Below, piece after piece: positions 4,589-35,579 of a DNA stretch of 64,000 nucleotides. Origin of the DNA: a virus; IMG/VR virus record IMGVR_UViG_3300037487_001184, positions 32,001 to 96,000 of that record. One strand, given 5' to 3'. The notes beneath the pieces were generated by a model. It saw only the letters and a program-made list of their open reading frames with translations, made no database searches and had not been told where the DNA came from. Made by a program: the position numbers and the translations under genes. Numbering within the stretch: the stretch's first letter is position 1; each line of letters opens with the position of its first letter.

Positions 4589-4626
4589 ACATCCTTTAAT
4601 TCCACCAACACATATGGGAGGCGAAC

Positions 4627-16954: not shown

Positions 16955-17218
16955 TCATTTCCTTGGGTCCTTATCAAACGGGGTAGGTATTCTTCCATCC
17001 TCAGTTGGTGCTGACTCTATTGAACCACCATTCATTTTCTTTGATGGAGCCCACTTTCTAGCCTTTGGTGGCTTAGGTTTTACCATATCGTTGACGTCAC
17101 CGAATTGATACTTCTGTGCTGGTGCTATAACCACAGGTGGAGTATCATTATCACATGTAGCCATAGATGATCCCATTAACGTGATCATGATCATGATTAG
17201 TAATATTCTCATCTGCAC
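16955..17218 (-). CDS. exported or lipoprotein, Pro-rich (o-spanin-like candidate)
   Basis: hydrophobic N-terminus followed by Cys, then Pro-rich region. Confidence 0.5.
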   Translation of the reverse strand: MQMRILLIMIMITLMGSSMATCDNDTPPVVIAPAQKYQFGDVNDMVKPKPPKARKWAPSKKMNGGSIESAPTEDGRIPTPFDKDPRK

Positions 17219-17222
17219 CCCA

Positions 17223-17702
17223 CTAACTATACGTAGCCAAGTAAATAAGCCCCAGTATTATACTGCATAATATTGCTGTGGGTCCATAAGTTGTTTCAAT
17301 TATCTGTTTAAACAACCCTTCAGGGAATAAGACTTTAGAAACAAAGAGTATCCCGCCTGTTATAAAGAACAAGCCTACAAGGAAAGAGGTAGACCTTAAC
17401 ACCACTACTCGATACAGCGCAAAGGAGTCACTATCGGGAAGGACTATAGGTGAGATGTACATGAAGATAGCAACTAAAATTATTAAGCCCATCGAGGATT
17501 GAATCCAACTCTTCATTTGTAGCCATAGATAATTATCCCGCCTAGTATGAACAATAGTCCATATGAGCAACCCAATCATTAATATCAACAGGGTTGCCTG
17601 GCCAGGCAAATCTAGCAACCTTGATAGATAATTCCAAACCAGGTCTAGAGCGTTCCACTCAGCTACGTCATTTACTATAACAATAGCGCTTGTACTCAAC
17701 AT
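17223..17702 (-). CDS. multi-pass membrane protein (holin candidate)
   Basis: about four hydrophobic segments, near the NlpC/P60 gene. Confidence 0.55.
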   Translation of the reverse strand: MLSTSAIVIVNDVAEWNALDLVWNYLSRLLDLPGQATLLILMIGLLIWTIVHTRRDNYLWLQMKSWIQSSMGLIILVAIFMYISPIVLPDSDSFALYRVVVLRSTSFLVGLFFITGGILFVSKVLFPEGLFKQIIETTYGPTAILCSIILGLIYLATYS

Positions 17703-18339
17703 GCCTCCTTACTGGTGTAGTTAATACTTTCTCGTCACTCCAGCCAATATTTGACCGATGTATTAATGTAGCAGAGTTTATGCCAGTATGCCTTACCCAC
17801 TCCGCAATAGTCTTTCGTTCTCCTTCAAAAGTCATCCATCTATTGCTTCTTCTATTGTTACATTGTTCTAGCATAGTAACCCATCGGCAATTCCCTGGTT
17901 CATAATCCCCGTCATTATCTATACGATCTAATGTCAGATCATCAGAGCAATCCCCCATGTCTTCGTAGAAATTGACAAATCCGTCTCGACCTAACCACCT
18001 ATCACAGACTTTTATACCCCGACCTCCGTAGCTCTTATAAGCTTTATGACCAATCTCATAGCATCTCCGCTGCATATCTGCCCAGGCTAGGTGGGCTCTG
18101 GTCTCAATACCATTGCGTAAGCATTGCCCATGTCTTGTTTGTGTCTCCTTAATACGATCTAACTTATAACAACCACACGAGTTTGTGTTACCTATTTTTA
18201 AATCTGGTCCGCGTGCTTCTATTATATTTCCACAATCACACAAACAACTCCATCGTGAAGTACGCTTAACTACACCGACAAATTCTTGCACGGTCAATCT
18301 ACCGAATTTCTGTCCCACTAGATTCAATCTCTTACTCAT
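17668..18339 (-). CDS. free-standing HNH homing endonuclease
   Basis: LVGQKFGRLTV, CLCDCG, SCGC, YGGRGIKVCDRW, LDRIDNDGDYEPGNCRW. Confidence 0.9.
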   Translation of the reverse strand: MSKRLNLVGQKFGRLTVQEFVGVVKRTSRWSCLCDCGNIIEARGPDLKIGNTNSCGCYKLDRIKETQTRHGQCLRNGIETRAHLAWADMQRRCYEIGHKAYKSYGGRGIKVCDRWLGRDGFVNFYEDMGDCSDDLTLDRIDNDGDYEPGNCRWVTMLEQCNNRRSNRWMTFEGERKTIAEWVRHTGINSATLIHRSNIGWSDEKVLTTPVRRHVEYKRYCYSK

Positions 18340-18380
18340 TATTACCACTCCTTATTGTGTCTATCCTTAGTGGTTTATTT

Positions 18381-18431
18381 GCTGGCAGGTGGCTAAGGTT
18401 TCCACTTTTCGGACCATGAATCCTAGCCAGC
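18381..18431 (-). ncRNA. conserved structured leader upstream of HNH (copy A)
   Basis: GCTGGCTAGG...CCGAAAAGTGG...CCACCTGCCAGC; same motif at 23771 and 30012. Confidence 0.7.
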
Positions 18432-18440
18432 GCTTTTCAA

Positions 18441-18860
18441 TTACTTAACCTCTATAGGTGGTATTTTTAACCATTCCTGGGTCCTTCTGTGCATTTCTCT
18501 ATTCGCCATAAATTCGACACGCAACCGCTCAAACACACTTTCTATCTCTTCGTGAATCCTATCATGGCTATCTATAATATATTTACGGTGCTCTTTAAGT
18601 TCCAAAGTATGATTAGCAAGCCCAGCATCAATTCGTTCTAATAACATAGCGTTGTTTTTCAATACCTCGACAGCGAGGATACCATTGCGATCCAGCTTTT
18701 CGGATAGTTCCAAAACACGTTTTGTCATCTGCCGGGTATGCTCACGAGCTACATGTGCATCTTCTACTTGGTATTGATAGTAGAAGTAAGCAATCCCGCA
18801 AACAGCTATGATAAAGCAAACACCTACCACCCAGGATATAAAGACCCTTAACTTACTCAT
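18441..18860 (-). CDS. membrane-anchored coiled-coil protein
   Basis: single N-terminal TM helix followed by a helical region. Confidence 0.6.
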   Translation of the reverse strand: MSKLRVFISWVVGVCFIIAVCGIAYFYYQYQVEDAHVAREHTRQMTKRVLELSEKLDRNGILAVEVLKNNAMLLERIDAGLANHTLELKEHRKYIIDSHDRIHEEIESVFERLRVEFMANREMHRRTQEWLKIPPIEVK

Positions 18861-19143
18861 TTTTACCCCTACCATTAATTAGTCTATTAATTACATCCAT
18901 TAGCCTTGTAGACGTGCCACTGGTTGTTTCCTTTATTTCTGTAAGTATCTGCTTGTTCTGCACATCAGACTGGCGCAAGTACGCATCGTGGGCGAGGGTG
19001 TTCTCAAGGATTAAATCAATCTTATTATGAGTCTCAACTTTAACCTTCTTCACATCCCGAATACGGTGATATACAAGATACCCGATAACAGGAAACAGAA
19101 CTATGGCTAGAATTATGAATGGTGTTATAGAGAACCAAGTCAT
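18853..19143 (-). CDS. membrane-anchored protein
   Basis: N-terminal TM helix. Confidence 0.6.
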   Translation of the reverse strand: MTWFSITPFIILAIVLFPVIGYLVYHRIRDVKKVKVETHNKIDLILENTLAHDAYLRQSDVQNKQILTEIKETTSGTSTRLMDVINRLINGRGKNE

Positions 19144-19304
19144 ACTACGTCCTTATCGACAGTTGTATCTTTGATTACCTCTTGTTTTAACGCAAAAAGT
19201 TCTATCAATAAAACATCCACCTTTGAATCTAAATTCTTTAGCCGAACAATTATCCCCGCCATGTTTCGGAGTAATTGAAGCGCTGTATTTTCTGATATTG
19301 GCAC
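19140..19304 (-). CDS. small coiled-coil protein (54 aa, not in the ORF track)
   Basis: GTG start after GGAG, (M)PISENTALQLL...DKDVV*, overlaps the next start. Confidence 0.5.
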   Translation of the reverse strand: MPISENTALQLLRNMAGIIVRLKNLDSKVDVLLIELFALKQEVIKDTTVDKDVV

Positions 19305-19317
19305 TGTTCATACTCCA

Positions 19318-19644
19318 TTAGGCGTTACCCATAGGCTGCTCAACTTCACCAAAATCACATAAATCGTCAGGAATGGTGGCAAGATACTTTAATAAGTCCC
19401 CGTGTTTAGCAACGAAGAGGCAGTGGTAAATAATATTAGCAACCATCTGCTGCTCTTGTGGACTCATCTGACGTGAAATCAAATTCAACTCATACGCCAG
19501 ATAATTTAACACGCCTTGTGTTGCCATAGCAGTGCGCGCATTGCTAACTGTCTCATGTACCAACCGTTTCCCTTCATCCGATTCACATAACTTAAGCATC
19601 ACGTTTGGCTGCAGGATATATTTGGGATTGTTTTCTTTATTCAT
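19318..19644 (-). CDS. hypothetical protein
   Basis: coupled to the RNR stop. Confidence 0.6.
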   Translation of the reverse strand: MNKENNPKYILQPNVMLKLCESDEGKRLVHETVSNARTAMATQGVLNYLAYELNLISRQMSPQEQQMVANIIYHCLFVAKHGDLLKYLATIPDDLCDFGEVEQPMGNA

Positions 19645-21494
19645 TACAACTCACAAGAGTTACCTGCACAGGCAAATTCTCGACTACCTGTGGTAGTATC
19701 TGTATTCTCATACTCTGAAAGTTTACTGAAGTCAAGGACTGGGAGTTCTCTCAACAGTCTATGATATTCTATTTCTGATACCTCCTCATACGGAGCTTGC
19801 GCGTACGACTTGTTCTCGTATGGGAAGAAAGCAACTCCATTAATAGTATCAAAATGTTTATACACATAAGCTATAATCTCCAACCACTCATCATCTTTAA
19901 CAAAGATGGTGCAGCTCATGTTCTGTTCTGCCCAATTCTCTACTAACATTCTATACCACTCAAGTTGACCAATTGCTGTATCCTGCTCACGAGTCTTCGC
20001 TCCGTCTGGAGAACGCATAGGGAACGAGAATATTGCAGTATCGTGGTTGCCTTTGTCTAACTCATAAGGCATACCTTGGTCAACCATCATCCTAAACAGA
20101 GCATCGTGCATCGAGATACGTACGCGTCTAAGATAATAATTAGCCCACCTGGAGTGCATACCTGAAGAGCAATCAACCATCTGACTCACAGTACCACTAG
20201 GCTTTCCAAGCGTTATAGCTGCTGGCATATTTATACCAAGTGCTGCTGATGCCTGTTTAGCAGTCTTCACAGCGGTAGTACGCCAATGGCGTAGTGTCTC
20301 TGGTGTTATCAGATTTATATTATCACAGAGTCCTGTAAGTGATACCCCTAGTAACCTCTCTTCTTCTGCATTTTTAGCCCACTCAGGACGTAAATGAGGG
20401 AAGTATGTAAGTGTAGACTGAATACATCCCATCCAGGTCGCTGTTCGTATCTTGTCTGCTACACTATCAAAATCATCATCTGCTCGAATGACTACCTCAG
20501 TTAAATTGCATAAACCCATATCACGTAGTAGTGTTTCCCCACAGGGATTTGATATCACTATAGCACTCTTATCTCTACGTTTAGGGCTTCGTTTTCTCGC
20601 TGCCACTAAATTAAATATGCCACGCTCACCAGAGCCAGACTTAGCCATATCTATGAACTCTTGGGTAAACTTGAGGACATCAGGTTTCTTTCTATAAACT
20701 GCTGAGATATTTGCCATGAACCTTCTTGGGTGAAAGTTACCCTGCTTTGCATTCTGCATATCCATATCATCTACATCACATAAACATATCATAGCAGTCC
20801 GACGAACACCACCACAAACCACTGCAGACCCAATCTCACACATCATATCAAAAACTTCTATAGATTTAAGCTTACGATCTTGTGCTTCTATTATTGTTTC
20901 TCTCAAAAATTCCAAGCAGCGCGCTAGAGGCTCAGGACCGGAAGCATAACCGCCTGATATCACTAAGGGAGTTCCCGCTGGTCTCACTTGAGAGTAATCA
21001 AACACTGCATCTCTACCGTTGAACCATTCCTGTATACCAAAATCAACTGCTTTCTTCCAACCTAACCTGCTATCTCCAACAACATGCCTCAATGTGGGCA
21101 AATTCCGCTGCTTTTTTATCTCAGGAAGTTGCTCTAACCACTTCGCTTCCACTGAAAACCCAACTCCAGTACCAGCAAGTTCGATATACATTGCCTCACC
21201 AAACCCTTCTAGTGAGGATGAGCAGAAGCCTGAACAACCGTACGCAGCTATATTGTCTCGTCTTACATTCTCCCCAGCAGACCAGACAAGTCGCATACTT
21301 GCCATAACACCTTTTGTAAGCATATAATCTTTAATTTTTTTCTTTGTCTTGGTGGGTATATTCTGGCAGTTCTTCGTTTCGTTAAATATAAAATTGCAGT
21401 ATCTATCGACGGTTTCACTCCAGGTTTCACGCCGCTGAAGTTCTGGAAGGAAACGACTATATGTTCTTAAAAAGATGAAATCTTCGTACACCAT
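19644..21494 (-). CDS. nrdJ: class II (B12-dependent) monomeric ribonucleoside-triphosphate reductase
   Basis: RTYSR, GTGVGFSV, NPCGE, CNLTE, KPSGTVS, C-terminal CAGNSCEL. Confidence 0.92.
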   Translation of the reverse strand: MVYEDFIFLRTYSRFLPELQRRETWSETVDRYCNFIFNETKNCQNIPTKTKKKIKDYMLTKGVMASMRLVWSAGENVRRDNIAAYGCSGFCSSSLEGFGEAMYIELAGTGVGFSVEAKWLEQLPEIKKQRNLPTLRHVVGDSRLGWKKAVDFGIQEWFNGRDAVFDYSQVRPAGTPLVISGGYASGPEPLARCLEFLRETIIEAQDRKLKSIEVFDMMCEIGSAVVCGGVRRTAMICLCDVDDMDMQNAKQGNFHPRRFMANISAVYRKKPDVLKFTQEFIDMAKSGSGERGIFNLVAARKRSPKRRDKSAIVISNPCGETLLRDMGLCNLTEVVIRADDDFDSVADKIRTATWMGCIQSTLTYFPHLRPEWAKNAEEERLLGVSLTGLCDNINLITPETLRHWRTTAVKTAKQASAALGINMPAAITLGKPSGTVSQMVDCSSGMHSRWANYYLRRVRISMHDALFRMMVDQGMPYELDKGNHDTAIFSFPMRSPDGAKTREQDTAIGQLEWYRMLVENWAEQNMSCTIFVKDDEWLEIIAYVYKHFDTINGVAFFPYENKSYAQAPYEEVSEIEYHRLLRELPVLDFSKLSEYENTDTTTGSREFACAGNSCEL

Positions 21495-21591
21495 GTATTA
21501 ACCCCGCTAAAGAATAATTTGGCAGCCGAAGCTGCCATCTAACAGCAAGCACATACCACAAATTATCTAAAAAGTCAAGGTACCTGCGCGT

Positions 21592-22242
21592 TTAAACTTC
21601 AATAGTATTTTTGTTCTTGAGCCCGTATACTACTGCCGTCCCAGTCCCCCCAGAGTAAACTAACATCGAATTTATACTTTCATCGTTTCTAATTATAACC
21701 TTTTCGCCCACTGGTATTGTTATAGCATTAGCAGAAGCGCCATTAAATCTAATCCCAGCCGCAGCATTGGTCCCGTTGTAAATATACAAGGCGGGATACG
21801 CTAACACTGAAACAGATGCAGTAGGAAAACTAGTTTCACTAAGTAATAAAGTAAGGGGCGTTACAAACGGCTCATCATCTGTGAGTGTAAGTCCTTCTAT
21901 TGCTGTGATAGTAACTGTACATGCTGCACCAAAACCGCCAGTTGTTGCTTTAGTGCCAATAGTATAACCGGTACCGCCAGTAACTAATGCAACTGCGGAT
22001 ATAACCCCTTGCGATTGTGTTATAGATACAGTTCCGCCAACTCCTCCCGCAAGAGTAAGGACATCACCAGTATGATAACCAGTGCCACCAACAACAGGTG
22101 TCGCAGTTATTGCAGTTATAGCACCAGTAAGAGTAGAGGGTTTAGTTCTAAAGTATCTACTTGTCTCTTTTTCTTCATCAACTTGAAACGTCATACCACC
22201 AATTACTATCACTTCATCAGAGGTATTTGTGTACGTAGGCAT
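21592..22242 (-). CDS. putative virion protein, paralog of 30077-30487 with an inserted GGTGY domain
   Basis: MPTYTN start and similar C-terminal half. Confidence 0.65.
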   Translation of the reverse strand: MPTYTNTSDEVIVIGGMTFQVDEEKETSRYFRTKPSTLTGAITAITATPVVGGTGYHTGDVLTLAGGVGGTVSITQSQGVISAVALVTGGTGYTIGTKATTGGFGAACTVTITAIEGLTLTDDEPFVTPLTLLLSETSFPTASVSVLAYPALYIYNGTNAAAGIRFNGASANAITIPVGEKVIIRNDESINSMLVYSGGTGTAVVYGLKNKNTIEV

Positions 22243-22295
22243 TAATCAATCTCCTTATTGTTAAAAATTAACGATACCCTTAATAAAATTAGGGG

Positions 22296-22592
22296 TTATG
22301 AAAGCTCTTTCACTTCTGGGTTAGAATATGCTTGATAGGTAGTCTGGACCACAGTATCAATTATACTCCTTTCGATAGTAGGGAAGTTCTCAGTAACTTT
22401 AGATACAGCAAACGAAAACTTCTCAGAACCACTCAACTCTGTTTTAGCGGCAGCATCACGAATACCATCCAATGCTATGGGAACTAATATCTTCCCGTGT
22501 GCCACCAAATCTTTAACTACATTTAATGCTATCGCTTGTACAGTTTTGTTACCTATTAGGTAAGACAGTGCTAATTTAAGTGCTATCCACAT
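22296..22592 (-). CDS. holin-like hypothetical protein
   Basis: SGSEKF..A motif reminiscent of LLH-type phage holins. Confidence 0.5.
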   Translation of the reverse strand: MWIALKLALSYLIGNKTVQAIALNVVKDLVAHGKILVPIALDGIRDAAAKTELSGSEKFSFAVSKVTENFPTIERSIIDTVVQTTYQAYSNPEVKELS

Positions 22593-22593
22593 T

Positions 22594-22830
22594 CTAATCT
22601 TCCTCCTTCTTCTTTGACATATTACCAATCAAAAATCCGAAGCTTGTACTAACAAGCCCAATGAGCACCTTCACTACCTCAATAGAAATAGTAGTCTCAC
22701 TCTTCTTGTCACCAAGGAGGGGGGATATTACAATCACAGCCAGAACAATAAACATACACACTGCAATAACAAAGATAGCAATACCAACTACTTGTTCGTT
22801 AATATCCTTCCCAAATATCTTAGAGAACAC
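22594..22830 (-). CDS. two-TM membrane protein (holin-like)
   Basis: two hydrophobic helices and a charged C-terminus. Confidence 0.6.
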   Translation of the reverse strand: MFSKIFGKDINEQVVGIAIFVIAVCMFIVLAVIVISPLLGDKKSETTISIEVVKVLIGLVSTSFGFLIGNMSKKKEED

Positions 22831-23018
22831 TACTCCTCCTCTTCATAATGTGAATCTAAAAAAGGCATGGGTAAATACTCAGTATAAGGAGTCCCCATTT
22901 TTAGTAGCACCGCACCTAAACAAGAACAATTTATATGAAAATTTCCCACTGGGTATGTATCATAAGTGTATATAATAGCCCCACATTGTGCACAATTACC
23001 AAGTAAAACCATACCCAT
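22830..23018 (-). CDS. small zinc-ribbon-like protein
   Basis: CAQCG...CSC; coupled ORF. Confidence 0.5.
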   Translation of the reverse strand: MGMVLLGNCAQCGAIIYTYDTYPVGNFHINCSCLGAVLLKMGTPYTEYLPMPFLDSHYEEEE

Positions 23019-23548
23019 TAAACATCCACACTATCTAAAAAAACTTCAACATCCGAACTACACAACAGTTCCAGATTAGCATTAATTTTCTCGTCTGTCC
23101 AGTTATACCAAGCCACGTTTAATAACCGTTCAATGATTTCTGGTTCAAATCTATAGCGTATTAACTTAGCTGGATTACCACCATAAATAGCGTACGGTGG
23201 AACAGACTCAATAATATGACTATTACAAGCAATCACTGCTCCATCCCCAATAATCACGCCCGACATTATTGTAGACCAGTTTGCTATCCAGACATCATTT
23301 CCTATCACAGTTGATTTACCTGGCTTAGGGTGCCCTATGCCATGATAAGGAAACACGTCCTGTGATGTATGCCCAAATGGGAAAGTCGTGACCCAATTAG
23401 TATTATGATTCCCGCCAAGGAATATTCTAACACCATCCCCTATACTACAGAAATTCCCAATAGTTAAATCACCGCCGCCAAAATACTCACCATAAAGTAT
23501 TTCAATACGTTGATGTCCAAAAGTGTGCCGCCCATAGATAATACTCAT
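23018..23548 (-). CDS. CatB/Vat-family hexapeptide-repeat O-acetyltransferase
   Basis: IGNFCSIG, GGNH, TFPF, IGNDVWI, VPPYAIYGGNPAKLIRYRF. Confidence 0.88.
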   Translation of the reverse strand: MSIIYGRHTFGHQRIEILYGEYFGGGDLTIGNFCSIGDGVRIFLGGNHNTNWVTTFPFGHTSQDVFPYHGIGHPKPGKSTVIGNDVWIANWSTIMSGVIIGDGAVIACNSHIIESVPPYAIYGGNPAKLIRYRFEPEIIERLLNVAWYNWTDEKINANLELLCSSDVEVFLDSVDV

Positions 23549-23552
23549 ATAA

Positions 23553-23735
23553 CTACACCTCTATTACAAGTTTTGTGCTTCTATTTTTTAGATTACTACT
23601 ACTGACACTCTTAATATTCCCACAATCACAAACACAAATCCAACAAGAACAATGTCCCCGCTTATCCATGCCAGCAAATTCCTTTACAATCAATCTACCA
23701 AACCGCTGCCCAGTCAAATCAATGAACTTACTCAT
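23553..23735 (-). pseudogene. truncated HNH endonuclease (N-terminal zinc-binding module only)
   Basis: DLTGQRFGRL...CVCDCG, stops before the nuclease domain. Confidence 0.75.
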
Positions 23736-23770
23736 ATCTACCCCCTGTAGTAAACCCCCGATTTTGTTGT

Positions 23771-23828
23771 TTAATGGGCAGGTGGTTCAGGAAGACCACT
23801 TTTCGGTTCCGGTAACCTAGCCCATTAA
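23771..23828 (-). ncRNA. conserved structured leader upstream of HNH (copy B)
   Basis: TTAATGGGCTAGG...CCGAAAAGTGG...CCACCTGCCCATTAA. Confidence 0.7.
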
Positions 23829-23830
23829 TT

Positions 23831-25123
23831 TTAGATTAATTCACGCCCCATAGGACGATAGCCATCCTTTAAGCAAATCAAAATACACGAGACGTATGGA
23901 ATATTATTCTCCTCAAACCACGGTCCAGGAAAGTACTGGTATAAAGTCACTGCTTTGAATCTTACGCGGTCGTTGTCAATATATCTAGCCGTTTCTCTGT
24001 CAGTATAGTACCAAAAACTGTTGGGATTCCAGTACGTGCGATGAGTTGGGTCTTGGAAAGCCCCACGACCATCAGAACTGGGAACTCTGATAAGCGCATA
24101 CCCACCTGGCATTAATACCCTAAATATTTCGGACATTGTATGCCATTTATCTGATAAGTGTTCAATTATATCGAACGCACGAATTACACCCACAGATGAT
24201 GTCTCGAACGGAAAGTCATCATTTAAGTCCGTATTAACATCTGCGTCCTTTAAATCCACACTTATGAAATTTTCTGGGGTATTGAACCTGCCCCCAATGT
24301 CCAACATTGTGTAATTATTTGTCTTTGCCCAATGCAAAATCATATCATAGATAAATTGCTTCTGCACATTATGCATATTATCTTGGATAGCTTTATTCCT
24401 ATTTAGCCAACTGTTAGAGCCATATACGCGGTAAAGATACAAACAATCGTCGAGATGAATAAACTTACCCTCAAGGTAGAATTTACACATAAGCGTCGAG
24501 TCATCCAACACATTCAGAGTCTCATCATGTCCGCCCACTTTTTCATAAACCGATTTACGGAATACACGAGGATGGTCTGGCTGATAAAGAATCAGTGATG
24601 TATGATAGGGATTCAACGGTGGGCAGATAGTTTCCTTGTACAAAATATCTTTGTAAAAAAAGTCCTTATACTTCCAGCCATATAAGGTATCTTCGTTAGT
24701 GATACTAGTAGCGTTACCAAATAGGCGTGGGGACCTGTCATCATTATTAAAACTTGCAGCATTAGCATATATGAACACTGCTTCGGTATCTTCCGCCGCA
24801 GCACTAATCTTATCTAAGGCACCATCTACCAGCTCGTCATCGTGATCGAGTTCTAATATCCACTCCCCACTGCATTTACCAAATACATATTTCTTCAAAG
24901 ACCCAATATTAGGTAGTCCATTGGTATGGATAGGGATAAAACCATCATCTATAATGACAGTTCTAGGGTCATCCTTAATCTCCTGTGGTATATCTTTAGC
25001 AGTAATGCCAGAATTGGGTAATAAAACCCACTCCAAATAATCCTGATTTTGTATAGACTTATAGGTATCTAATAGAAAACGTGTATTATGTGTTGGTGTT
25101 GCAATAGAGATATTAGATGTCAC
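23831..25123 (-). CDS. GT2 glycosyltransferase fused to a SAM-dependent methyltransferase
   Basis: IATPTHN, ELDHDD (DxD), VGGHDE; LDIGG, DIIEHL, EIFRVLMPGG, DPTH. Confidence 0.85.
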   Translation of the reverse strand: MTSNISIATPTHNTRFLLDTYKSIQNQDYLEWVLLPNSGITAKDIPQEIKDDPRTVIIDDGFIPIHTNGLPNIGSLKKYVFGKCSGEWILELDHDDELVDGALDKISAAAEDTEAVFIYANAASFNNDDRSPRLFGNATSITNEDTLYGWKYKDFFYKDILYKETICPPLNPYHTSLILYQPDHPRVFRKSVYEKVGGHDETLNVLDDSTLMCKFYLEGKFIHLDDCLYLYRVYGSNSWLNRNKAIQDNMHNVQKQFIYDMILHWAKTNNYTMLDIGGRFNTPENFISVDLKDADVNTDLNDDFPFETSSVGVIRAFDIIEHLSDKWHTMSEIFRVLMPGGYALIRVPSSDGRGAFQDPTHRTYWNPNSFWYYTDRETARYIDNDRVRFKAVTLYQYFPGPWFEENNIPYVSCILICLKDGYRPMGRELI

Positions 25124-25988
25124 CTAACACCTCACGCGTCTCCTCAATGTGCTTCGTTAGCAAGAGATAGTTGGGAATTATAGGCACAAGTTTCTGAAGT
25201 CTCCAAAGCAATCCTTTGAAGTCTCCCTGACCCTTACACAGTTCACACATGCCCCATAAACTAGCCTCAAAATAAGGTCCATCAGTTTGCCCATGTTTCA
25301 GAAGCTGGAAGCATAACTCAATAGCTTTATTAGTTTCACCCTTTACCAGATATTCTTTAGCCTGGAGGAATAAAAAACTGATGTCTCCTTTATCTATCTC
25401 AGTCTGATACAAATCAATATGCAAATCTACCTTGTATTCTGCCGGATTGTCTTTGATATGCTCAAAAATGAAGTCACTCATTACCGGAGCATCGGCACCA
25501 TTTATAACATACGGATACTCATGGACAGGGTTTCCCCACCTACGGGTACCGTACTTCCATATCCGCACACTACCCTCTCTTACAATTGTTCCAGCTTTGT
25601 TCCAACCTACATCATGAAGATAGTGTGTAGCAAAATTAACAGCCTCTGGTCTAGTCTCAGCAAGCCATTGTCTAATTAGTAATGGGTTAGAAGCTAATAC
25701 CTCGTCCGAATCACTTCTGCCGATATAGTCAGCGGGGGGAACCCTATCTAAAACATCCTGTCGCAGCTTACCGAAATGCCTAAAATCTTCGAAGTTCTGC
25801 CTATAACAAGATACATTAGGATAATGTTTTAATAGTTCGTATACTGCATCAGAATCACTTCTAGAATCTACCCCTATCACAGCGAAATCGTATAGACCCT
25901 GAAGTGAAGTCATGGCACTCTCAGTGTAGTCGGTACGTCCCTTCACGATAAGGTGCCATCCCACGGTAATTGTTGATGTCTCCATCAT
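25113..25988 (-). CDS. GT2-like glycosyltransferase with helical (TPR-like) C-terminus
   Basis: LIVK, DSRSDSD, DSDE, W.NPVHE. Confidence 0.75.
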   Translation of the reverse strand: MMETSTITVGWHLIVKGRTDYTESAMTSLQGLYDFAVIGVDSRSDSDAVYELLKHYPNVSCYRQNFEDFRHFGKLRQDVLDRVPPADYIGRSDSDEVLASNPLLIRQWLAETRPEAVNFATHYLHDVGWNKAGTIVREGSVRIWKYGTRRWGNPVHEYPYVINGADAPVMSDFIFEHIKDNPAEYKVDLHIDLYQTEIDKGDISFLFLQAKEYLVKGETNKAIELCFQLLKHGQTDGPYFEASLWGMCELCKGQGDFKGLLWRLQKLVPIIPNYLLLTKHIEETREVLGDI

Positions 25989-26020
25989 CTGCCTCCCATT
26001 TCAATCCTCATTATTTTCGT

Positions 26021-26049
26021 ATTATAGCACAATTAATCTTATTTGTCAA
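26021..26049 (-). promoter_or_regulatory. consensus sigma70 promoter ahead of the glycosyltransferase cluster
   Basis: TTGACA-17-TATAAT with extended TG. Confidence 0.8.
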
Positions 26050-26052
26050 GCT

Positions 26053-29000
26053 TTATTCTATAAGTCCCCCATCTATTGTGCTAAGAGCACTAATCTCTGA
26101 GTCAAGTTCTGCTAATGCGGTCTGAACATTAGTTGCAACAAGCCCACCAACGGCAGTCACCGCTACGGCAGATGCTATACTAGCACCACCACCACCACCA
26201 CCGCCATCAGCTAAAGCTATATAATCAAACCTTAGTGAGTGAGCAGTAGTCCCATTAGATGTATGGATAAATTGTAGTTTAACAGCCCCAGTGCTAATAT
26301 AAGGTGCACCATTAAAGACTACTAAACTTCTGGACACATAATCTGCCTCACCAGCAAATGTTGCGAACGTATCCCAAGCACCAGTGCTATTATTCCACAA
26401 CTGAATGCTCATATAATGGTTTACAGCACCAATATAATACGAACGTGTGTCTATTGTCGTGAAGCTGGTAATACCTGTAAACAAGAACTGGACAGTAAGC
26501 GGTGCTACTGCCGATGCACTATCAGCGGTCTCTCGAACATTCAGATAGGTATTATCACGAGCGGTGCCTATAGCTGTTAAGCAGTTAGCCAGTTTATGAT
26601 TAGTCACCGTTTCGTCAGGAATAAATCCTAACGTCCCGCCAGCTACAGGAGTGACCCATGTTGTGCCAGTGATATCATAGGTATGCCCAACATTGCCTAA
26701 CTCAATGCCCACAGGTGCATATAGCACATTAGACACAACGCCAAGGGTTAATGCAGCACCAGCATCATCATAGGTTACAGTAAGATGGCTATTGGCTGTT
26801 TTGATAAACCCGTCACCACCAACAGTTCCACCTAAATCATCCTGAACATTTTCTAGGGTTAGGGATGTCCCTTGAGTACCCTGTGTTCCTTGATTACCCT
26901 GATTACCTTGATTGCCTTGGGTCCCCTGCGTTCCTTGTGTGCCTTGTGTACCTTGATTCCCTTGTGTTCCTTGGTATCCCTGGTCTCCACCAACATCACC
27001 CTGATTACCTTGATACCCCTGTGGTCCTTCTAATGTACCTTGTATTCCTTCCGTACCTTGATTACCCTGGTATCCTTGATAACCCTGTGGACCTTCTAAT
27101 GTTCCCTGGATTCCCTCATCACCCTGGAATCCTTGGTTCCCGCGATAACCCTGGTACCCATCTGTACCTTGAATCCCATCAAATCCCTGCGTACCCTGAA
27201 AACCATCTGTTCCCTGGTTCCCATCAAATCCTTGTGTTCCTTGAAAACCGTCTGTTCCTTGATAACCCTGGAACCCGTCTGTTCCTTGGATTCCATCAAA
27301 GCCCTGTGTTCCTTGAAAACCATCGGTACCTTGGGACCCCTGATATCCCTGCGTTCCTTGGAAGCCATCAGTTCCCTGGTACCCTTGATTTCCTTGAGTT
27401 CCTTGAGTTCCTTGTGTTCCCTGAAAACCCTGGTTTCCCTGGGCTCCTTGATATCCAAGATTTCCACGATATCCTTGGTTACCCTGATACCCTTGATACC
27501 CTTGAACTCCCTGGTTACCTTGGTATCCCTGGTTGCCACGATAACCCTGTGGTCCAGGTAATGTACCCTGTGTTCCTTCAGTCCCTTGATACCCCTGCGT
27601 TCCTTGTGGTCCTTCTAAAGTTCCCTGCGGACCTTGATTCCCTTGATACCCCTGATTTCCACGATATCCCTGATATCCCTGTGAACCACGATAACCAGTG
27701 GTTCCTTGTACTCCGCGATAACCGTCAGTACCCTGCACACCATCAGTGCCTTGAACACCTTGGTATCCCTGTACCCCTTGATTTCCCTGATATCCCTGAT
27801 TTCCTCTATATCCCTGGTATCCCTGATATCCCTGCGGTCCTTCTAAAGTACCTTGGATACCTTCTGTACCTTGGTACCCTTGAGTACCACGATACCCTTG
27901 CGGTCCTTCTAGTGTGCCTTGGATTCCTTCGGTTCCTTGGTATCCTTGAGTCCCCGAATATCCCTGGTATCCCTGCGGACCTTCTAATGTACCTTGTGGA
28001 CCATAATCTCCCTGATAACCTTGGTTTCCCCTATAACCCTGAACACCATCAAATCCTTGTGTTCCTTGATTTCCATCGGTACCCTGATTACCATCAAATC
28101 CTTGTGTTCCTTGACTTCCATCGGTACCCTGAACACCATCAAATCCTTGTGTTCCCTGATTACCATCATCTCCTTGATTTCCCTGATATCCTTGTGGTCC
28201 TTCTAATGTACCTTGTGGACCATCATCTCCCTGATTTCCTTGATATCCTTGCGGTCCTTCTAAAGTTCCTTGTGGACCCTCATCTCCCTGATATCCCTGA
28301 AAGCCATCAGTGCCCTGGTTCCCATCAAATCCTTGTACTCCTTGAAAACCATCTGTTCCTTGAATACCATCGGTACCTTGATAACCCTGGAACCCGTCTG
28401 TTCCTTGGATTCCATCAAAGCCCTGTGTTCCTTGAAAACCGCCATCTCCTTGATATCCCTGATATCCCTGTGGACCTTCTAAGGTTCCCTGTATTCCTTC
28501 GGTACCTTGGTATCCTTGATACCCATCAGTGCCCTGGTTCCCATCAAATCCTTGTGTTCCTTGAAAACCGTCTGTTCCTTGGTTTCCATCGGTACCTTGA
28601 TTTCCATCAAACCCTTGATTACCTTGCGGTCCTTCTAATGTTCCTTGTGGACCTTCATCACCTTGGTATCCCTGATAACCATCAGTACCTTGATAACCTT
28701 GAGGACCTTCAAGTGTTCCTTGAACACCTTCATCACCTTGAACTCCTTGCGTACCCTGATTTCCTTGTGTTCCTTGAGAACCATCAAAACCTTGGTATCC
28801 CTGATAACCATCTGTACCTTGATATCCATCAAAGCCTTGGTATCCTTGGAAGCCATCTGTTCCTTGATTTCCGTCGAATCCTTGGTTACCTCGGTATCCC
28901 TGTTGACCTTGTGGTCCTTCCCCTTGATTTCCTTGTGTGCCTTGAAATCCATCAGTACCTTGATTACCGTCAAATCCCTGTGTACCTTGAAAACCCCGAT

Positions 29001-29322
29001 TTCCTTGAGTTCCTTGGTTACCCTGTAATCCTTCTAAAGTTCCCTGTATTCCTTCATTACCCTGATTACCTTGTGTTCCTTGAAAACCGCTAGTACCTTG
29101 TGTACCTTGTGGCCCATCAAAACCACCTAAACCCCGAATACCAGTTGTACCCTGATAACCCTGGTTTCCACGATATCCTTGATTTCCTTGATAACCTTTA
29201 GTACCCTGATACCCAGCATCCCCCTGAACACCATCTATACCTTGATTACCTTGGTATCCCTGACTACCCTGACTTCCAATAGCCCCATGAGCCGGTGGGG
29301 AAATTACAGTGAAATTACTCAT
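26053..29322 (-). CDS. giant collagen-like (Gly-X-Gln) fibre protein
   Basis: about 800 aa of G-x-y triplets with recurrent GTLE interruptions; globular C-terminus. Confidence 0.88.
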   Translation of the reverse strand: MSNFTVISPPAHGAIGSQGSQGYQGNQGIDGVQGDAGYQGTKGYQGNQGYRGNQGYQGTTGIRGLGGFDGPQGTQGTSGFQGTQGNQGNEGIQGTLEGLQGNQGTQGNRGFQGTQGFDGNQGTDGFQGTQGNQGEGPQGQQGYRGNQGFDGNQGTDGFQGYQGFDGYQGTDGYQGYQGFDGSQGTQGNQGTQGVQGDEGVQGTLEGPQGYQGTDGYQGYQGDEGPQGTLEGPQGNQGFDGNQGTDGNQGTDGFQGTQGFDGNQGTDGYQGYQGTEGIQGTLEGPQGYQGYQGDGGFQGTQGFDGIQGTDGFQGYQGTDGIQGTDGFQGVQGFDGNQGTDGFQGYQGDEGPQGTLEGPQGYQGNQGDDGPQGTLEGPQGYQGNQGDDGNQGTQGFDGVQGTDGSQGTQGFDGNQGTDGNQGTQGFDGVQGYRGNQGYQGDYGPQGTLEGPQGYQGYSGTQGYQGTEGIQGTLEGPQGYRGTQGYQGTEGIQGTLEGPQGYQGYQGYRGNQGYQGNQGVQGYQGVQGTDGVQGTDGYRGVQGTTGYRGSQGYQGYRGNQGYQGNQGPQGTLEGPQGTQGYQGTEGTQGTLPGPQGYRGNQGYQGNQGVQGYQGYQGNQGYRGNLGYQGAQGNQGFQGTQGTQGTQGNQGYQGTDGFQGTQGYQGSQGTDGFQGTQGFDGIQGTDGFQGYQGTDGFQGTQGFDGNQGTDGFQGTQGFDGIQGTDGYQGYRGNQGFQGDEGIQGTLEGPQGYQGYQGNQGTEGIQGTLEGPQGYQGNQGDVGGDQGYQGTQGNQGTQGTQGTQGTQGNQGNQGNQGTQGTQGTSLTLENVQDDLGGTVGGDGFIKTANSHLTVTYDDAGAALTLGVVSNVLYAPVGIELGNVGHTYDITGTTWVTPVAGGTLGFIPDETVTNHKLANCLTAIGTARDNTYLNVRETADSASAVAPLTVQFLFTGITSFTTIDTRSYYIGAVNHYMSIQLWNNSTGAWDTFATFAGEADYVSRSLVVFNGAPYISTGAVKLQFIHTSNGTTAHSLRFDYIALADGGGGGGGASIASAVAVTAVGGLVATNVQTALAELDSEISALSTIDGGLIE

Positions 29323-29975
29323 TTTTTATTAATCCTATTTCTATTACCTGCTGGTGTATTCAGAGCACGTTCAAGAGTCCAATTCTGTATACGGTAATCC
29401 AAAGCACTCATACTTATATCTAAACTATGCGCCCACTGGGCTCTAGTCTTATCCTCACCATTATAGATAATCCTTTTATTACACCTACGATTATTAGACT
29501 GCACACTAGCAGTAGCCCATCTACAATTACCAGGCTCGTAGTCACCATCATTGTCTTTTCTATCTAAGGTCATACCGTCTGGACGCATTCCCATATCAGC
29601 TAAGAAATTTTCAAAACCATGCTTCTTGTCTAACCATCTATCGCAAACCTTAATACCGCGACCACCATAATTATGATAACCGGCATATTTAGGATTATAG
29701 CACCTATTCTTCATGTTCTGCCAACAATTATACGTCCCACTTGACCACCCACGTTTAGTGTGGTTATGCTTAGTGAACCATTCAATATGCATTTCTCGCT
29801 TAAAACAACCACACGATTTTGTACTACCGTTATTTAGAGACAGCCCCCTAACTGTTGTAGTATTCCCACAGTCACATATACAGTACCACCAAGAATTCTT
29901 TTCGTCAGTAAAAGCAAATCCTAAGACCGATAACCTCCCAAATACTTGTCCTGTTAAATTAATGACTTTTCCCAT
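29319..29975 (-). CDS. free-standing HNH homing endonuclease
   Basis: LTGQVFGRL, CICDCG, YGGRGIKVCDRW, LDRKDNDGDYEPGNCRWAT. Confidence 0.9.
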   Translation of the reverse strand: MGKVINLTGQVFGRLSVLGFAFTDEKNSWWYCICDCGNTTTVRGLSLNNGSTKSCGCFKREMHIEWFTKHNHTKRGWSSGTYNCWQNMKNRCYNPKYAGYHNYGGRGIKVCDRWLDKKHGFENFLADMGMRPDGMTLDRKDNDGDYEPGNCRWATASVQSNNRRCNKRIIYNGEDKTRAQWAHSLDISMSALDYRIQNWTLERALNTPAGNRNRINKK

Positions 29976-30011
29976 TACCGCACCCCTTATTGTGTTTTCC
30001 TTAGTATTATC

Positions 30012-30064
30012 AATGGGCAGGTGGCTAAGGTTTCCACTTTTCGGGTAGCTTTCCCTAGCCCATT
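30012..30064 (-). ncRNA. conserved structured leader upstream of HNH (copy C)
   Basis: AATGGGCTAGG...CCGAAAAGTGG...CCACCTGCCCATT. Confidence 0.7.
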
Positions 30065-30076
30065 AAATTTGTCCCA

Positions 30077-30487
30077 CTAAGTGCCCCATAAAGTTATTGC
30101 ACCTTCATTACCCCCGGATGTAAAAACAATACTACCTGCCTTGCCATCGGACTCCCAGGTCAAGTATACTTCAGGCGGGATTTGCAACACATCGGCATCA
30201 TTTCCATTAGCATAAAAAGTCACCACGTCACCAGTACGATTATAAAAAATAAGTGTTGCATATCCAGTAACCGCGATAGTATCAGATGGATACTCTGTAA
30301 TAGATGCCAGCTCCCTAAACGGGTATACTAATGGCGAGTGACTGGAAAACGTGATTCCTGTAGGGATTACAGTTGGATAAAAATCTGTAGTTGCAGAAGA
30401 ATTCTTTCTTACAGTCGCGTGCTTCTTCCCTGAAATGCCACCCCTCAGAGTAATACTGCGCGCCGTTGAGTTCAAGTACGTAGGCAT
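30077..30487 (-). CDS. putative virion protein (paralog of 21592-22242)
   Basis: MPTYLN start, beta-rich; AGGAGG upstream. Confidence 0.65.
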   Translation of the reverse strand: MPTYLNSTARSITLRGGISGKKHATVRKNSSATTDFYPTVIPTGITFSSHSPLVYPFRELASITEYPSDTIAVTGYATLIFYNRTGDVVTFYANGNDADVLQIPPEVYLTWESDGKAGSIVFTSGGNEGAITLWGT

Positions 30488-30511
30488 AATTAAAAATCCT
30501 CCTGCTTACAA

Positions 30512-30751
30512 TTAATCTTCTACTACTAGTTCTGGAATCATTTCTTCTTCCACCGGACGGAAGGTTATCACCTTAATTTCTGTTTGGCTAATCCAAATAC
30601 TACCACCATTTTCCATAGGAACTCTTATCTTAGCCTGTGACATTAGAGCAGGTTCAATAGCTGCTTGTTCCCCGTCTATAACCATGCTAAATACCACATC
30701 ATTTCCGTCCGAATCACGTAAATTACTTATAATTGTCACTGTCGTCTTCAT
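30512..30751 (-). CDS. hypothetical protein
   Basis: GGAGGT Shine-Dalgarno. Confidence 0.6.
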   Translation of the reverse strand: MKTTVTIISNLRDSDGNDVVFSMVIDGEQAAIEPALMSQAKIRVPMENGGSIWISQTEIKVITFRPVEEEMIPELVVED

Positions 30752-30778
30752 CTGTCTACCTCCCTTTTGTTTTACAGT

Positions 30779-31129
30779 TTATACTTTTAGTGCTGCTACT
30801 GCTTTAAACGTAGCAATCTTCTCTGACATAGCCAATTCTGTCGGTGTTGCTTCCGCTGCAATAAACTCAGCCAACTCACCTTCTGCTGCATCTGCCACAT
30901 CCCCTATCTGAGCCTCAACCGCAGTAGTCAATGCACTGAAGTCTGTCGTGATATCGGCAATAACTTTATTGCCTCTGGTTAGTTTTAAGCCTTCTGGTGA
31001 AAGCTGTGCCATGAACATACCGAACACTGAACTATAAAGCCCAGACTCAGCCGGTCCTGCTTCCTGCCACACTATACGAAATGATTCCGTACCTGAAATT
31101 ATACTAGCCAAAACATCTGCTGCTGCCAT
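30779..31129 (-). CDS. hypothetical protein
   Basis: coupled ORF. Confidence 0.6.
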   Translation of the reverse strand: MAAADVLASIISGTESFRIVWQEAGPAESGLYSSVFGMFMAQLSPEGLKLTRGNKVIADITTDFSALTTAVEAQIGDVADAAEGELAEFIAAEATPTELAMSEKIATFKAVAALKV

Positions 31130-31130
31130 T

Positions 31131-31802
31131 TTATTCCCCTTCTACTACTTTTAGTTGTGGCTTTAGTAGTTCTTTTCTAAAGCGCATGAAATCTCCTATG
31201 AACCGTTTACCACCAATATGAACATTGGTAATTTCGGGATCTAAATAAATGCTATACCCCAACTCTCTTAATCTCCTACACATCACATTATCTTCCGACA
31301 CCAACTCCCCATCTATTATCTTAACGTCAAATATCATTTTTCTCAATTTGCCTTCATTCTCATACTCAGGACTATTGTCCCATAATGATTGCATGGCTTT
31401 ATTACTAAGTTTGAGGAATCCAGTACCTAAACTATTAACTTTGATAAGACCATTCTCTCCTATATCCAAATTTTGTGTGTTAATGTTATAAAGCTCTGCG
31501 TCATCAGTCTTTTTACGCACAGTTCCACCAACTACATCCTCTGGATAATTGAATAGCTTGAAAACATTTATTGGCTCAAACTCCATGTCATCGTCCACGA
31601 AGATCATCGCATCGGCACTGTTCTCCAATGCTATTGCAATCAAGTCATTTCTTGCCCTTTGGATAAGCGCATCGTGACTGAGATAGATGGGATAAGTGGT
31701 AATACCAAGGGATTCACCCATACGAATAGTTTCTACCATAGAAGCACAGTAGTAGACCGAAACTGTTCCAGAATAACAAGGAGTTCCAATAATTATATTC
31801 AT
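31131..31802 (-). CDS. GT-A fold glycosyltransferase-like protein
   Basis: IGTPCY, IQRARN, FVDDD, LGTGF, SEDNVMCRR, IYLDP..HIG. Confidence 0.8.
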   Translation of the reverse strand: MNIIIGTPCYSGTVSVYYCASMVETIRMGESLGITTYPIYLSHDALIQRARNDLIAIALENSADAMIFVDDDMEFEPINVFKLFNYPEDVVGGTVRKKTDDAELYNINTQNLDIGENGLIKVNSLGTGFLKLSNKAMQSLWDNSPEYENEGKLRKMIFDVKIIDGELVSEDNVMCRRLRELGYSIYLDPEITNVHIGGKRFIGDFMRFRKELLKPQLKVVEGE

Positions 31803-34421: not shown

Positions 34422-35579
34422 CTACCTCTTTATCAACATTGCGGGTGCTGCTTCTGGGAACCTACCAGATTCAGGGCAAAAAGTTACTTCCTGACCACTC
34501 TCTACTAATGCCTGATTGACACCAAACTTTCTCGGTGAGGCATCATGAAATAAAATAATACCACCATTTACCATCTTAGGCAAGTAGAGAGATAATATCT
34601 CTTTCGTGTCTGTATATGAGTGTGGGTCCACATCTACGTGAAGTAGGGTTATCTCCTCGAATATATCCAATACATGTTTGTCTTTAAAAGACCCCTTAAT
34701 TATTGATATTCTATCTACGTCACCTAATTCCTCCGCCTTACACCTAATATTAGTATCCACAAAAGCCGCTTTGTAATCAAACTTATTAATTACCTCCAAA
34801 AACATCTTAGCGGATTGTGCCTCACCTAAACCCAGCTCTAAAAATACAACAGGCTGCTTCGCTTTGCCTATACTCTCCTTATAGAAAGGTCTATAAGGCT
34901 CAAATAATTCTGAGATACCCCGATTACGTCCTCTTCCATGGTCTCCATTTAACAACTCTCTAGCGTCTGAATGGCTAGATAAAGTAGCATGTCCATAATG
35001 AAACAAAGGAGCATTCAAACACTCGACATTTAAATAACCAAGACTCTTAGAACCGTTCCATATGTGATCATCTCCATACCACACCAATACATTATCACTG
35101 ATTGGTCCTATACTCAACCACAAATCTCTTCGAATAAAATAATGAAAACCTGGAACTCTACCGCCCCTTTCACTCACTATAGGAATCCTGGGTTTAGTAT
35201 TTAATAGCTCTCGCTTATCTTTAACCTCATGCGGAATACATATACCAACTTGAGATAAGTCATGCAGAACAGTCAAGACCATCTCTATAGTATAATCAGC
35301 AAATAGAATATCATTATTCAATATAGCTACATAGTCTGATTCAACGAGGTTCATACAATAATTCCACGCTGGATTCACCCCAAGATTAGTCTCGCTACGA
35401 TGATATCGAATAGGTAGCATAGAAAACTTATCTACCAATGTTGGTGTCTCATCGGTACTACCATTATCAAACATGAAAATGTTCGTAGGCTGGACAGTGC
35501 TATTCTTTATGCAGGTCAGCATCTGGATCGTCATGTCATATCGGTCATATACAGGTACTACGACATCATAAGTTAGCAT
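34422..35579 (-). CDS. GT2 glycosyltransferase fused to a class I SAM methyltransferase
   Basis: VVVPVY, DNGSTD, LNNDI, YGDD; LELGL, HVDVDPHSY, GGIILFHD. Confidence 0.85.
   Translation of the reverse strand: MLTYDVVVPVYDRYDMTIQMLTCIKNSTVQPTNIFMFDNGSTDETPTLVDKFSMLPIRYHRSETNLGVNPAWNYCMNLVESDYVAILNNDILFADYTIEMVLTVLHDLSQVGICIPHEVKDKRELLNTKPRIPIVSERGGRVPGFHYFIRRDLWLSIGPISDNVLVWYGDDHIWNGSKSLGYLNVECLNAPLFHYGHATLSSHSDARELLNGDHGRGRNRGISELFEPYRPFYKESIGKAKQPVVFLELGLGEAQSAKMFLEVINKFDYKAAFVDTNIRCKAEELGDVDRISIIKGSFKDKHVLDIFEEITLLHVDVDPHSYTDTKEILSLYLPKMVNGGIILFHDASPRKFGVNQALVESGQEVTFCPESGRFPEAAPAMLIKR

Follow-up and report, generated by a model that had tools for sequence, protein, structure and literature searches.

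Int-alpA RNAs before HNH-like genes in a myovirus-like phage genome and their possible role in translation

int-alpA RNAs in the window

The stretch of viral DNA analysed here, 64,000 nucleotides (nt) corresponding to positions 32,001 to 96,000 of IMG/VR record IMGVR_UViG_3300037487_001184 and hereafter called the window, carries three RNA elements of about 55 nt on its minus strand, each of which occupies a gap of roughly 100 nt between two co-directional open reading frames (ORFs) and stands before a gene for an HNH-like protein (Table 1). The record as a whole is a 124,229-bp virus genome with direct terminal repeats from a sediment metagenome, and it is myovirus-like, with genes for a tail sheath, a baseplate, DNA polymerase and ribonucleotide reductase (RNR) as well as a tRNA cluster. 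The three elements, A, B and C, share the architecture P1-UA-P2-GAAAA-P3-CU-P1', in which a closing helix, P1, meets two hairpins, P2 and P3. The stop codon of the upstream ORF lies 7 (A), 3 (B) and 11 nt (C) before the start of the Rfam match described below, and the downstream ATG follows 41 (A), 35 (B) and 36 nt (C) after the 3' end of P1. An earlier note on this DNA had described the three copies, their consensus and their position upstream of HNH starts, including that of a truncated ORF, and all of this was recovered. The core pattern CTAG-N(8-16)-CGAAAAGNGG-N(6-14)-CCNCCTG matches the window at 18386-18426, 23779-23820 and 30018-30058, compared with 0.00 matches expected from 100 dinucleotide-preserving shuffles, and covariance-model searches of the whole genome found only these copies.

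When the window was searched with cmscan against Rfam 15, all three copies were identified as RF02996, the int-alpA RNA, along model positions 1-71 of 71, untruncated, and above the family's gathering score of 35.8 bits (Table 1); none of 14 control genomes gave an int-alpA match. In the RF02996 alignments, the three helices and the UA, GAAAA and CU junction strands are present in every copy, and the purine-rich 3' element of the model (positions ~66-71), which is site S1 described below, aligns in each copy at high posterior probability. The three elements are therefore members of a known RNA family. The earlier note had been unable to assign the motif to a named family and had itself made its novelty depend on such a search; the match above threshold thus removes that novelty, and int-alpA RNA, not a new HNH-linked family, is the appropriate annotation for the elements. 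Other families were not recovered: models of C4, c4-a1b1 and isrK gave no match at E ≤ 1 in 17000-31500 and none at the gathering score across the window, ribozyme family models gave no match to the three copies at E ≤ 1, and neither ARAGORN nor the Rfam tRNA model called any of them.

The name int-alpA refers to the neighbourhood of integrase or alpA genes, a tendency that lies outside the Rfam definition. The motif reportedly originates from the 2017 survey of Weinberg et al. The main text of that survey (PMC5737381) makes no mention of it, and the S1 pseudoknot, the S2 complementarity and hairpin P4 discussed below may already have been described with the motif. The searchable literature that uses the term int-alpA does not address its function, and a search for "RF02996" returned no paper. 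In contrast to int-alpA as described, the present copies reside in a 124-kb myovirus with direct terminal repeats, where they precede HNH-like genes and have neither integrase nor alpA as a neighbour; moreover, the tails of the window copies are not U-rich, whereas a run of U follows P1 in the Rfam consensus. They add new members, from a new host context, to a known RNA family of uncharacterised function.

Table 1. Positions of the int-alpA RNAs, their predicted pairing sites and the associated ORFs in the window
Feature	Position	Strand	Remarks
Three-way junction A	18381-18433	-	
Three-way junction B	23771-23829	-	
Three-way junction C	30012-30067	-	
Copy A int-alpA RNA, junction and 3' tail to S1	18365-18433	-	RF02996 41.0 bits; own model R1 55.6 bits
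Copy A P3 apical loop, AAACCUUAG ("anti-site")	18393-18401	-	complementary to S1 and S2
Copy A site S1, CUAAGG	18365-18370	-	6-nt perfect complement of P3 loop; last RF02996 model positions
Copy A site S2, UAAGGAG	18348-18354	-	Shine-Dalgarno region of HNH-like ORF; 5 nt complement P3 loop
HNH-like ORF A, 223 aa	17668-18339	-	phrog_374, E 3.8e-68; ATG 18337-18339
ORF upstream of copy A, 144 aa	18441-18875	-	co-directional; no family
Copy B int-alpA RNA	23756-23827	-	RF02996 48.6 bits; R1 58.7 bits
Copy B P3 loop, CUUCCUGA	23787-23794	-	unlike loop of A and C
Copy B site S1, UCGGGGG	23755-23761	-	pairs with B loop including G-U; compensatory relative to A and C; predicted duplex -6.4 kcal/mol
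Copy B site S2, CAGGGGG	23741-23747	-	Shine-Dalgarno region; 7 pairs with B loop; predicted duplex -9.2 kcal/mol
Truncated HNH-like ORF B, 60 aa	23553-23735	-	phrog_374, E 7.3e-17
Copy C int-alpA RNA	29998-30065	-	RF02996 49.5 bits; R1 61.2 bits
Copy C P3 loop, AAACCUUAG	30025-30033	-	identical to loop of A
Copy C site S1, CUAAGG	29999-30004	-	predicted duplex -7.2 kcal/mol
Copy C site S2, UAAGGGG	29983-29989	-	Shine-Dalgarno region; predicted duplex -5.4 kcal/mol
HNH-like ORF C, 218 aa	29319-29975	-	phrog_374, E 4.2e-69
Leaderless HNH-like paralog	3382-4032		
Leaderless HNH-like paralog	35566-36198		
Leaderless HNH-like paralog	61230-62267		

Fold, placement and partner genes

A search of IMG/VR with the core pattern returned at least 118 stretches, which together with the window gave 121 instances and 102 unique sequences; all 14 pattern-derived instances from other phages that were tested score above the RF02996 cut-off. 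In a fold alignment of 65 distinct instances, 85.6% of the helix cells are paired, compared with 62.7% in shuffles, and the covariation score is 0.556 against 0.143, a value reached by none of 500 shuffles. Both values collapse once the pairing partners are displaced by 1-3 columns. At columns 33-52, which the pattern does not fix, the pairs are CG in 35 instances, UA in 14, GC in 8, AU in 6 and UG in 1, with 1 unpaired; columns 14-25 show five pair types with 0/65 unpaired, and columns 7-59 are unpaired in 4/65. All three predicted helices of the junction are supported by this covariation. The earlier note had held the motif to be a conserved structured RNA and had proposed that covariation be looked for, and it is present across the family.

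The position of the RNA between genes is likewise a property of the family. In 91 of the 102 unique viral instances, a same-strand ORF of at least 40 aa starts 25-80 nt after the junction, the median distance from junction to start codon being 40 nt (101 instances with a candidate ORF). On the other side, a same-strand ORF ends within 400 nt upstream in 93/97, and the median gap between its stop codon and P1 is 11 nt. The int-alpA RNA is an intercistronic leader. Such placement at the 5' end of a gene would make the cis-regulatory or processing role suggested in the earlier note the most plausible class of function, although the part of that suggestion which linked the role to HNH genes finds no support in what follows. 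Of the 93 upstream ORFs, 79 were scanned against Pfam (7 near-duplicates and 4 doubtful instances were dropped, and 3 window ORFs were scanned separately), yielding 4 integrases, 9 Cro or helix-turn-helix type regulators, 3 Rz spanins, 4 major capsid proteins, 2 Mu-F-like proteins, a terminase and an antiterminator Q; none of the 79 matched Phage_AlpA at E ≤ 1e-4. Between positions 17000 and 31000 of the window, 36 sigma-70-like promoters (34.9 expected) and 11 terminator-like sites (8.0 expected) were counted, and no promoter is placed to serve the leaders and no terminator-like site lies at them.

The leader also recurs in dissimilar surroundings. Enterobacter phage Tyrion, Salmonella phage BIS08P22, Edwardsiella phage GF-2 and Pantoea phage PA-1, phages of different genera, carry counterparts that are 89-93% identical to the leader of ~95 nt at locus L016 (12940-13240), and the flanks are dissimilar. 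In those records the leader is unannotated intergenic DNA, and in BIS08P22 an annotated coding sequence begins 2 nt past the match. Judged from these comparisons, the leader is portable. Our own covariance model, R1, gave 66 matches at E ≤ 0.001 in 80 of at least 120 genome loci, bearing in mind that the loci and the model both derive from the same core pattern. The contigs with matches are labelled Proteobacteria, Acidobacteriota, Planctomycetota, Chloroflexota, Bacillota, Nitrospirae, Saccharibacteria and others, although single phylum assignments may be wrong because many of these contigs are bins of metagenome-assembled genomes. A freshwater-sediment DNA contig was also found to match only the 34-nt junction core of copy C (30012-30045) with 2 differences and unlike flanks, and represents an int-alpA copy in another genome.

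The earlier note had further proposed that the RNA travels with its HNH family, which the following comparisons do not support. The genome encodes 11 paralogs of the HNH-like gene (10 full-length and 1 truncated, with 40-64% mutual identity), and only A, B and C bear the leader. As the earlier note had observed for the other HNH genes, the motif is absent upstream of the remaining 8, several of which abut or overlap the preceding gene. The leader-bearing paralogs are 44-53% identical to each other, no closer than they are to leaderless paralogs. A profile search of viral contigs gave 554 relatives of the HNH-like protein, and among the best 80 of these, taken with 600-nt flanks, the leader was found in 0/80 by a strict regular expression and in 0/80 by the covariance model at E ≤ 10; a relaxed expression gave 3 matches in these loci, none of them plausibly placed. 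The leader is not HNH-specific, and its link to HNH genes is local, not defining.

A census against PHROGs of the 91 downstream ORFs (at least 40 aa) of other viral instances, ORFs that are non-identical but not independent, places nucleases as a recurrent minority partner of int-alpA: 15/91 are HNH, homing-endonuclease or EndoVII proteins from several unrelated PHROGs. The earlier note had proposed this very tabulation as a check on the endonuclease link. Replication genes account for 25/91, comprising primase/helicases (9) and replication initiators, helicase loaders and primosomal proteins (16). The others are ParB/methyltransferases (3), a Rha/antirepressor-like protein (1), structural proteins (5, one of them behind a motif later unconfirmed by our own model), a resolvase-like protein (1), matches to function-unknown PHROGs only (8) and ORFs with no match (33). 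In all four cases with a major capsid protein upstream, an HNH or homing nuclease lies behind the leader.

Some small nuclease ORFs are found between two int-alpA copies, namely at loci L019 (2059-2702), L035, L063 and L056 (4446-4985); one of these nucleases is GIY-YIG-like by eye and one is an HNH protein of phrog_15471. The arrangement resembles the insertion of a nuclease cassette, leader included, before a gene that was already preceded by a leader. At two further loci, L014 (8795-8937) and L102 (~1300-1373), a tRNA gene is followed 4 nt on by an int-alpA copy, and L014 also carries a Hammerhead_II ribozyme (4576-4645, minus strand, 49.1 bits).

Complementarity between the P3 loop and the 3' tail

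The 3' tail contains two sites with complementarity to the apical loop of P3. The first, S1, begins a median of 15 nt after the junction CCUG, or ~7-9 nt after P1. The second, S2, ends a median of 7 nt before the start codon and therefore overlaps the Shine-Dalgarno (SD) sequence. Complementarity was scored with one representative per distinct loop, and every loop was set against every other tail as a control. In the viral set, a score of at least 5 is attained at S1 by 34/61 representatives, compared with 7.5% of the controls, and in the SD region (-20 to -3) by 40/61, compared with 17.9%; 26/61 attain it at both sites. The same holds in bacterial contigs, where 121 pattern matches were reduced to 59 by a filter on P1, P2 and P3 pairing and to 52 with a suitably placed ORF. 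Using only the loops unseen in the viral set (n = 41), a score of at least 5 was found at S1 in 26/41 (control 8.8%), at S2 in 29/41 (control 22.4%) and at both in 20/41. Predicted duplex energies agree with the scores, at -5.4 kcal/mol for loop and S1 against -2.4 for mismatched partners, and -7.3 against -4.7 kcal/mol for loop and SD region.

The flanks of S2 can in turn pair with each other into a small hairpin, P4, which would carry the SD sequence in its loop. A pairing score of at least 4 is reached in 62/69 sequences compared with 34.1% in the control, and none of 1000 within-sequence shuffles reaches the observed mean. Hairpin P4 is better formed in copy B, with 6 pairs.

Within the present genome, the P3 loop, S1 and the UAAGG of S2 are the same in copies A and C, whereas the loop of copy B differs from theirs and its S1 and S2 are altered correspondingly. 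By their predicted pairing, A and C on the one hand and B on the other are a compensated set within one genome. The same rule of loop and site is followed, by eye, in copies that the core pattern had missed, namely the second copies at L019 and L056, the first at L014 and the plus-strand copy at L017.

A different tertiary contact had been suggested in the earlier note, where 4-nt complementarities between the apical regions of P2 and P3 in copies B and C were taken as a possible pseudoknot. These complementarities are literally present, but they use stem bases and are no feature of the family. Across representatives the mean score for P2-P3 loop-loop pairing is 2.05 compared with 2.22 in mismatched controls, and a score of at least 4 occurs in 1/61 compared with 5.8%, so that the contact is without family support.

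Possible function and neighbouring genes

On comparative evidence, we consider it somewhat better than an even chance that the int-alpA leader gates translation of the downstream gene through pairing of the P3 loop with the SD region, by a logic like that of the C4 and CI RNAs. The junction would hold the apical loop of P3 in place toward the tail. According to general rules for three-way junctions, a short CU strand next to a longer GAAAA strand would lean P3 back along P1 toward the tail, which fits the short linker to S1. Were the loop to pair with S2 in vivo, the ribosome-binding site would be hidden, giving an off state; pairing of the loop with S1 would compete with this and free the SD hairpin for the ribosome, giving an on state, and the leader would act as a two-state switch. 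Candidate triggers for the transition are melting of P1 by a ribosome that terminates ~11 nt upstream, recognition of the conserved junction by a protein or RNase, and the action in trans of an excised junction RNA as it accumulates.

In phage P4, the CI RNA matches the Rfam C4 model (RF01695, clan CL00128) at 74.9 bits and consists of two hairpins on a basal stem; the second of them has the loop CCUGUGAA, whose complement, UUCACAGG, lies upstream in the same transcript. C4, isrK and c4-a1b1 are all found in the phage P4 genome, and int-alpA is not, at E ≤ 1. The C4 and CI RNAs of phages P1/P7 and P4 and the int-alpA RNA thus have in common a stem that closes the 5' and 3' ends, two hairpins and a second loop that is antisense to its own transcript. 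The c4 RNA is described as blocking translation around a ribosome-binding site (PMC12197685), and C4 and int-alpA are alike in having an antisense loop directed at this region, the pairing being predicted by covariation in the case of int-alpA. The differences are that the C4 basal stem has 17 bp and that of int-alpA 7-9 bp, that the junction strands are not the same, and that both int-alpA targets lie directly downstream within ~35 nt. The int-alpA RNA may accordingly be said to work like C4/CI, if the pairing is as predicted, but to be no member of that family, because no match to C4 or its clan was obtained. A second precedent is offered by the homing-endonuclease genes of T4-type phages (I-TevI, I-TevII, I-TevIII, segB and mobE), for which an RNA structure in the polycistronic transcript is described that hides the SD sequence and holds back translation (PMC2988022). 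In those genes the structure is a local hairpin of simple form, with no conserved junction, and its effect is relieved when transcription starts at late promoters within it; int-alpA differs in that its predicted anti-SD sequence occupies a loop of the conserved three-way junction, in that it has a decoy site, and in the lack of any conspicuous promoter-like site.

Several points weigh against translational gating by the leader. The invariance of the junction in the alignment is partly imposed, because the search pattern fixes junction bases. The window copies have folding z-scores of -1.33, -0.56 and -0.53, which are not significant, and in them the consensus fold lies 1.5-3.3 kcal/mol above the minimum free energy (MFE); across the family, the MFE structure consists of two hairpins in 45/65 members and contains at least 80% of the consensus pairs in only 30/65. 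Although 0/2000 permutations reached the observed mean at either site, in the viral as in the bacterial set, these counts are not probabilities, because the sequences are related. The S2 control is high (18-22%), since loops are pyrimidine-rich and SD regions purine-rich, and among the viral representatives a score of at least 5 is missed at S2 by 21/61 and at S1 by 27/61. Hairpin P4 has only 3 bp in copy C and, by eye, likewise in A. The counts of G-U and A-C, 34 and 38, do not tell the strands apart. Rfam types RF02996 as a small RNA (sRNA) gene and not as a cis-regulatory element. Finally, one metatranscriptome contains a fraction of 0.04 of the sampled words of this DNA, with contigs that cover part of an upstream ORF and a 38-nt stretch inside an HNH ORF; no contig extends over a leader, which is evidence neither for nor against.

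The Rfam typing accords with a rather unlikely alternative, in which a trans-acting antisense RNA is excised from the transcript by RNase P or RNase E in the manner of C4 and CI, accumulates, pairs through its P3 loop with S1 and S2 of newly synthesised RNA and so exerts delayed negative feedback on the HNH genes, with A and C regulating each other and B insulated. The shared topology favours it, as do the identical loops and sites of A and C, the different and compensated set of B and the tRNA that precedes an int-alpA copy by 4 nt at L014. In phage P4, moreover, seqA and seqC provide two target sites per loop, to which S1 and S2 could be likened. C4 and CI are RNase P substrates (PMC5499578). 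Against this stand the absence of any C4 or clan match at E ≤ 1, the lack, by eye, of a conserved CCA-like 3' element after P1, and a P1 that is short beside the 17-bp basal stem of C4; pairing in cis should also outcompete pairing in trans, given targets in the same RNA at a distance of only 7-35 nt from the loop. Less probable again is a purely structural element, serving as an RNase site or as a 5' or 3' cap that uncouples the cistrons, in which the contact of loop and S1 would be a tertiary brace and S2 a by-product. It would suit the start of the RNA a median of 11 nt after the upstream stop, the serial copies between consecutive genes (as where two flank one small ORF at L019, L035, L063 and L056) and the conservation of junction bases across many labelled phyla, as for a universal host factor; the layout may even be loosely tRNA-like, with a closing stem of 7-9 bp, UA and a stem that starts with G, although neither ARAGORN nor the Rfam tRNA model makes a call. 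However, S2 covaries with the loop independently of the position of S1 and does so at SD distance, and the predicted hairpin P4 displays it in its loop; an element with no part to play at the ribosome-binding site does not readily account for these features.

An element that moves with the endonuclease family, either as a mobility or homing signal or as a self-cleaving ribozyme, we regard as very improbable. All three copies in this genome do precede HNH paralogs, nucleases are found downstream elsewhere, in all four cases with a capsid gene upstream and in places between two copies, and invariant junction bases are typical of small ribozymes. Yet most downstream genes are not nucleases, 8 of the 11 paralogs and all of the best 80 relatives are without the leader, its presence does not track HNH phylogeny and no ribozyme family was matched; furthermore, the leader of copy B is intact, with matched S1 and S2, although its HNH gene is down to 53 residues. 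Least credible of all is an intrinsic terminator or attenuator, in which a GC-rich P1 and the U-tract behind it would end transcription ahead of the downstream gene. The Rfam consensus has such a U-run, and at least 6 T occur in the 9 nt after P1 in 19/102 representatives, mostly primase leaders, but the other 83 are without a U-tract. The two window entries counted among them, A being collapsed with C because of the shared loop, have 3 and 0 T in these 9 nt and the tail of copy A has one T; the terminator scan flags none of the copies.

Returning to the gating of translation by pairing of loop and SD sequence, a broader version of it can be put forward tentatively. The int-alpA RNA would then be a cis-acting translational switch used across phyla, a miniature counterpart of C4/CI with a decoy site and an SD hairpin, pasted before dangerous genes such as those for nucleases, primases and replication initiators; in the present genome, A and C might cross-talk in trans, and B would be insulated from them by its compensatory changes. 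Together, the intercistronic placement, the covariation of one loop with two downstream sites and the recurrence before nuclease and replication genes make of an orphan motif a mechanism open to testing with a few reporter constructs; if the switch is real, it would also provide a compact and portable part for holding back toxic genes.

The HNH-like ORFs A, B and C are paralogs that match PHROG phrog_374, annotated as "HNH endonuclease". Together with phrog_374, four other PHROGs of this description match, with E down to 4e-69, whereas no Pfam family (up to E 10), NCBIfam family or sequence in the Protein Data Bank (PDB) was matched; the HNH label is softer than it appears because PHROGs are its whole basis. 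The AlphaFold2 (AF2) model of ORF C has a predicted local distance difference test (pLDDT) score of 91.6. A Foldseek search of the PDB with this model gave nothing at E ≤ 0.001, and the top fold match of VIA-align is the HNH restriction enzyme PacI (3m7k_A; Z 5.9, root-mean-square deviation 5.3 Å over 97 residues), which is below the level that VIA-align treats as reliable. The proteins share the core LDR.DN...Y.P.NCRW with no obvious first histidine, and PacI is itself an atypical HNH enzyme. A gene of a different HNH family, phrog_15471, lies at 2147-2710.

ORF B keeps only the first ~53 homologous N-terminal residues, and no further HNH remnant was found downstream of it. Four nucleotides separate its stop codon from the start codon, ATG, of a hexapeptide-transferase ORF (23018-23548), and the intact leader of copy B may now serve this hexapeptide-repeat transferase gene through coupling. 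Recombination between cassettes may account for two features that copies B and C have in common, identical P1 strands and an 8-nt string, UAUGGGGC, which immediately precedes the stop codons of the unrelated ORFs upstream (23840-23850 and 30085-30095, minus strand). No close phage relatives were found in which the presence or absence of the cassettes could be compared: the tail sheath is at most 30% identical to that of any cultured phage, megablast of 17600-19000 against a phage collection gave no match, and the flanking proteins, used as queries against viral contigs, found 0 and 1 weak locus.

The neighbours of the three copies in the window are HNH-like, RNR, glycosyl- or methyltransferase, hexapeptide-transferase, collagen-like and tail-fibre genes. 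The collagen-like gene (26053-29322) encodes a collagen-repeat protein of 1089 aa (Pfam Collagen, E 1e-108), and a long antisense ORF within it (26865-29093) is probably an artefact of the repeats.

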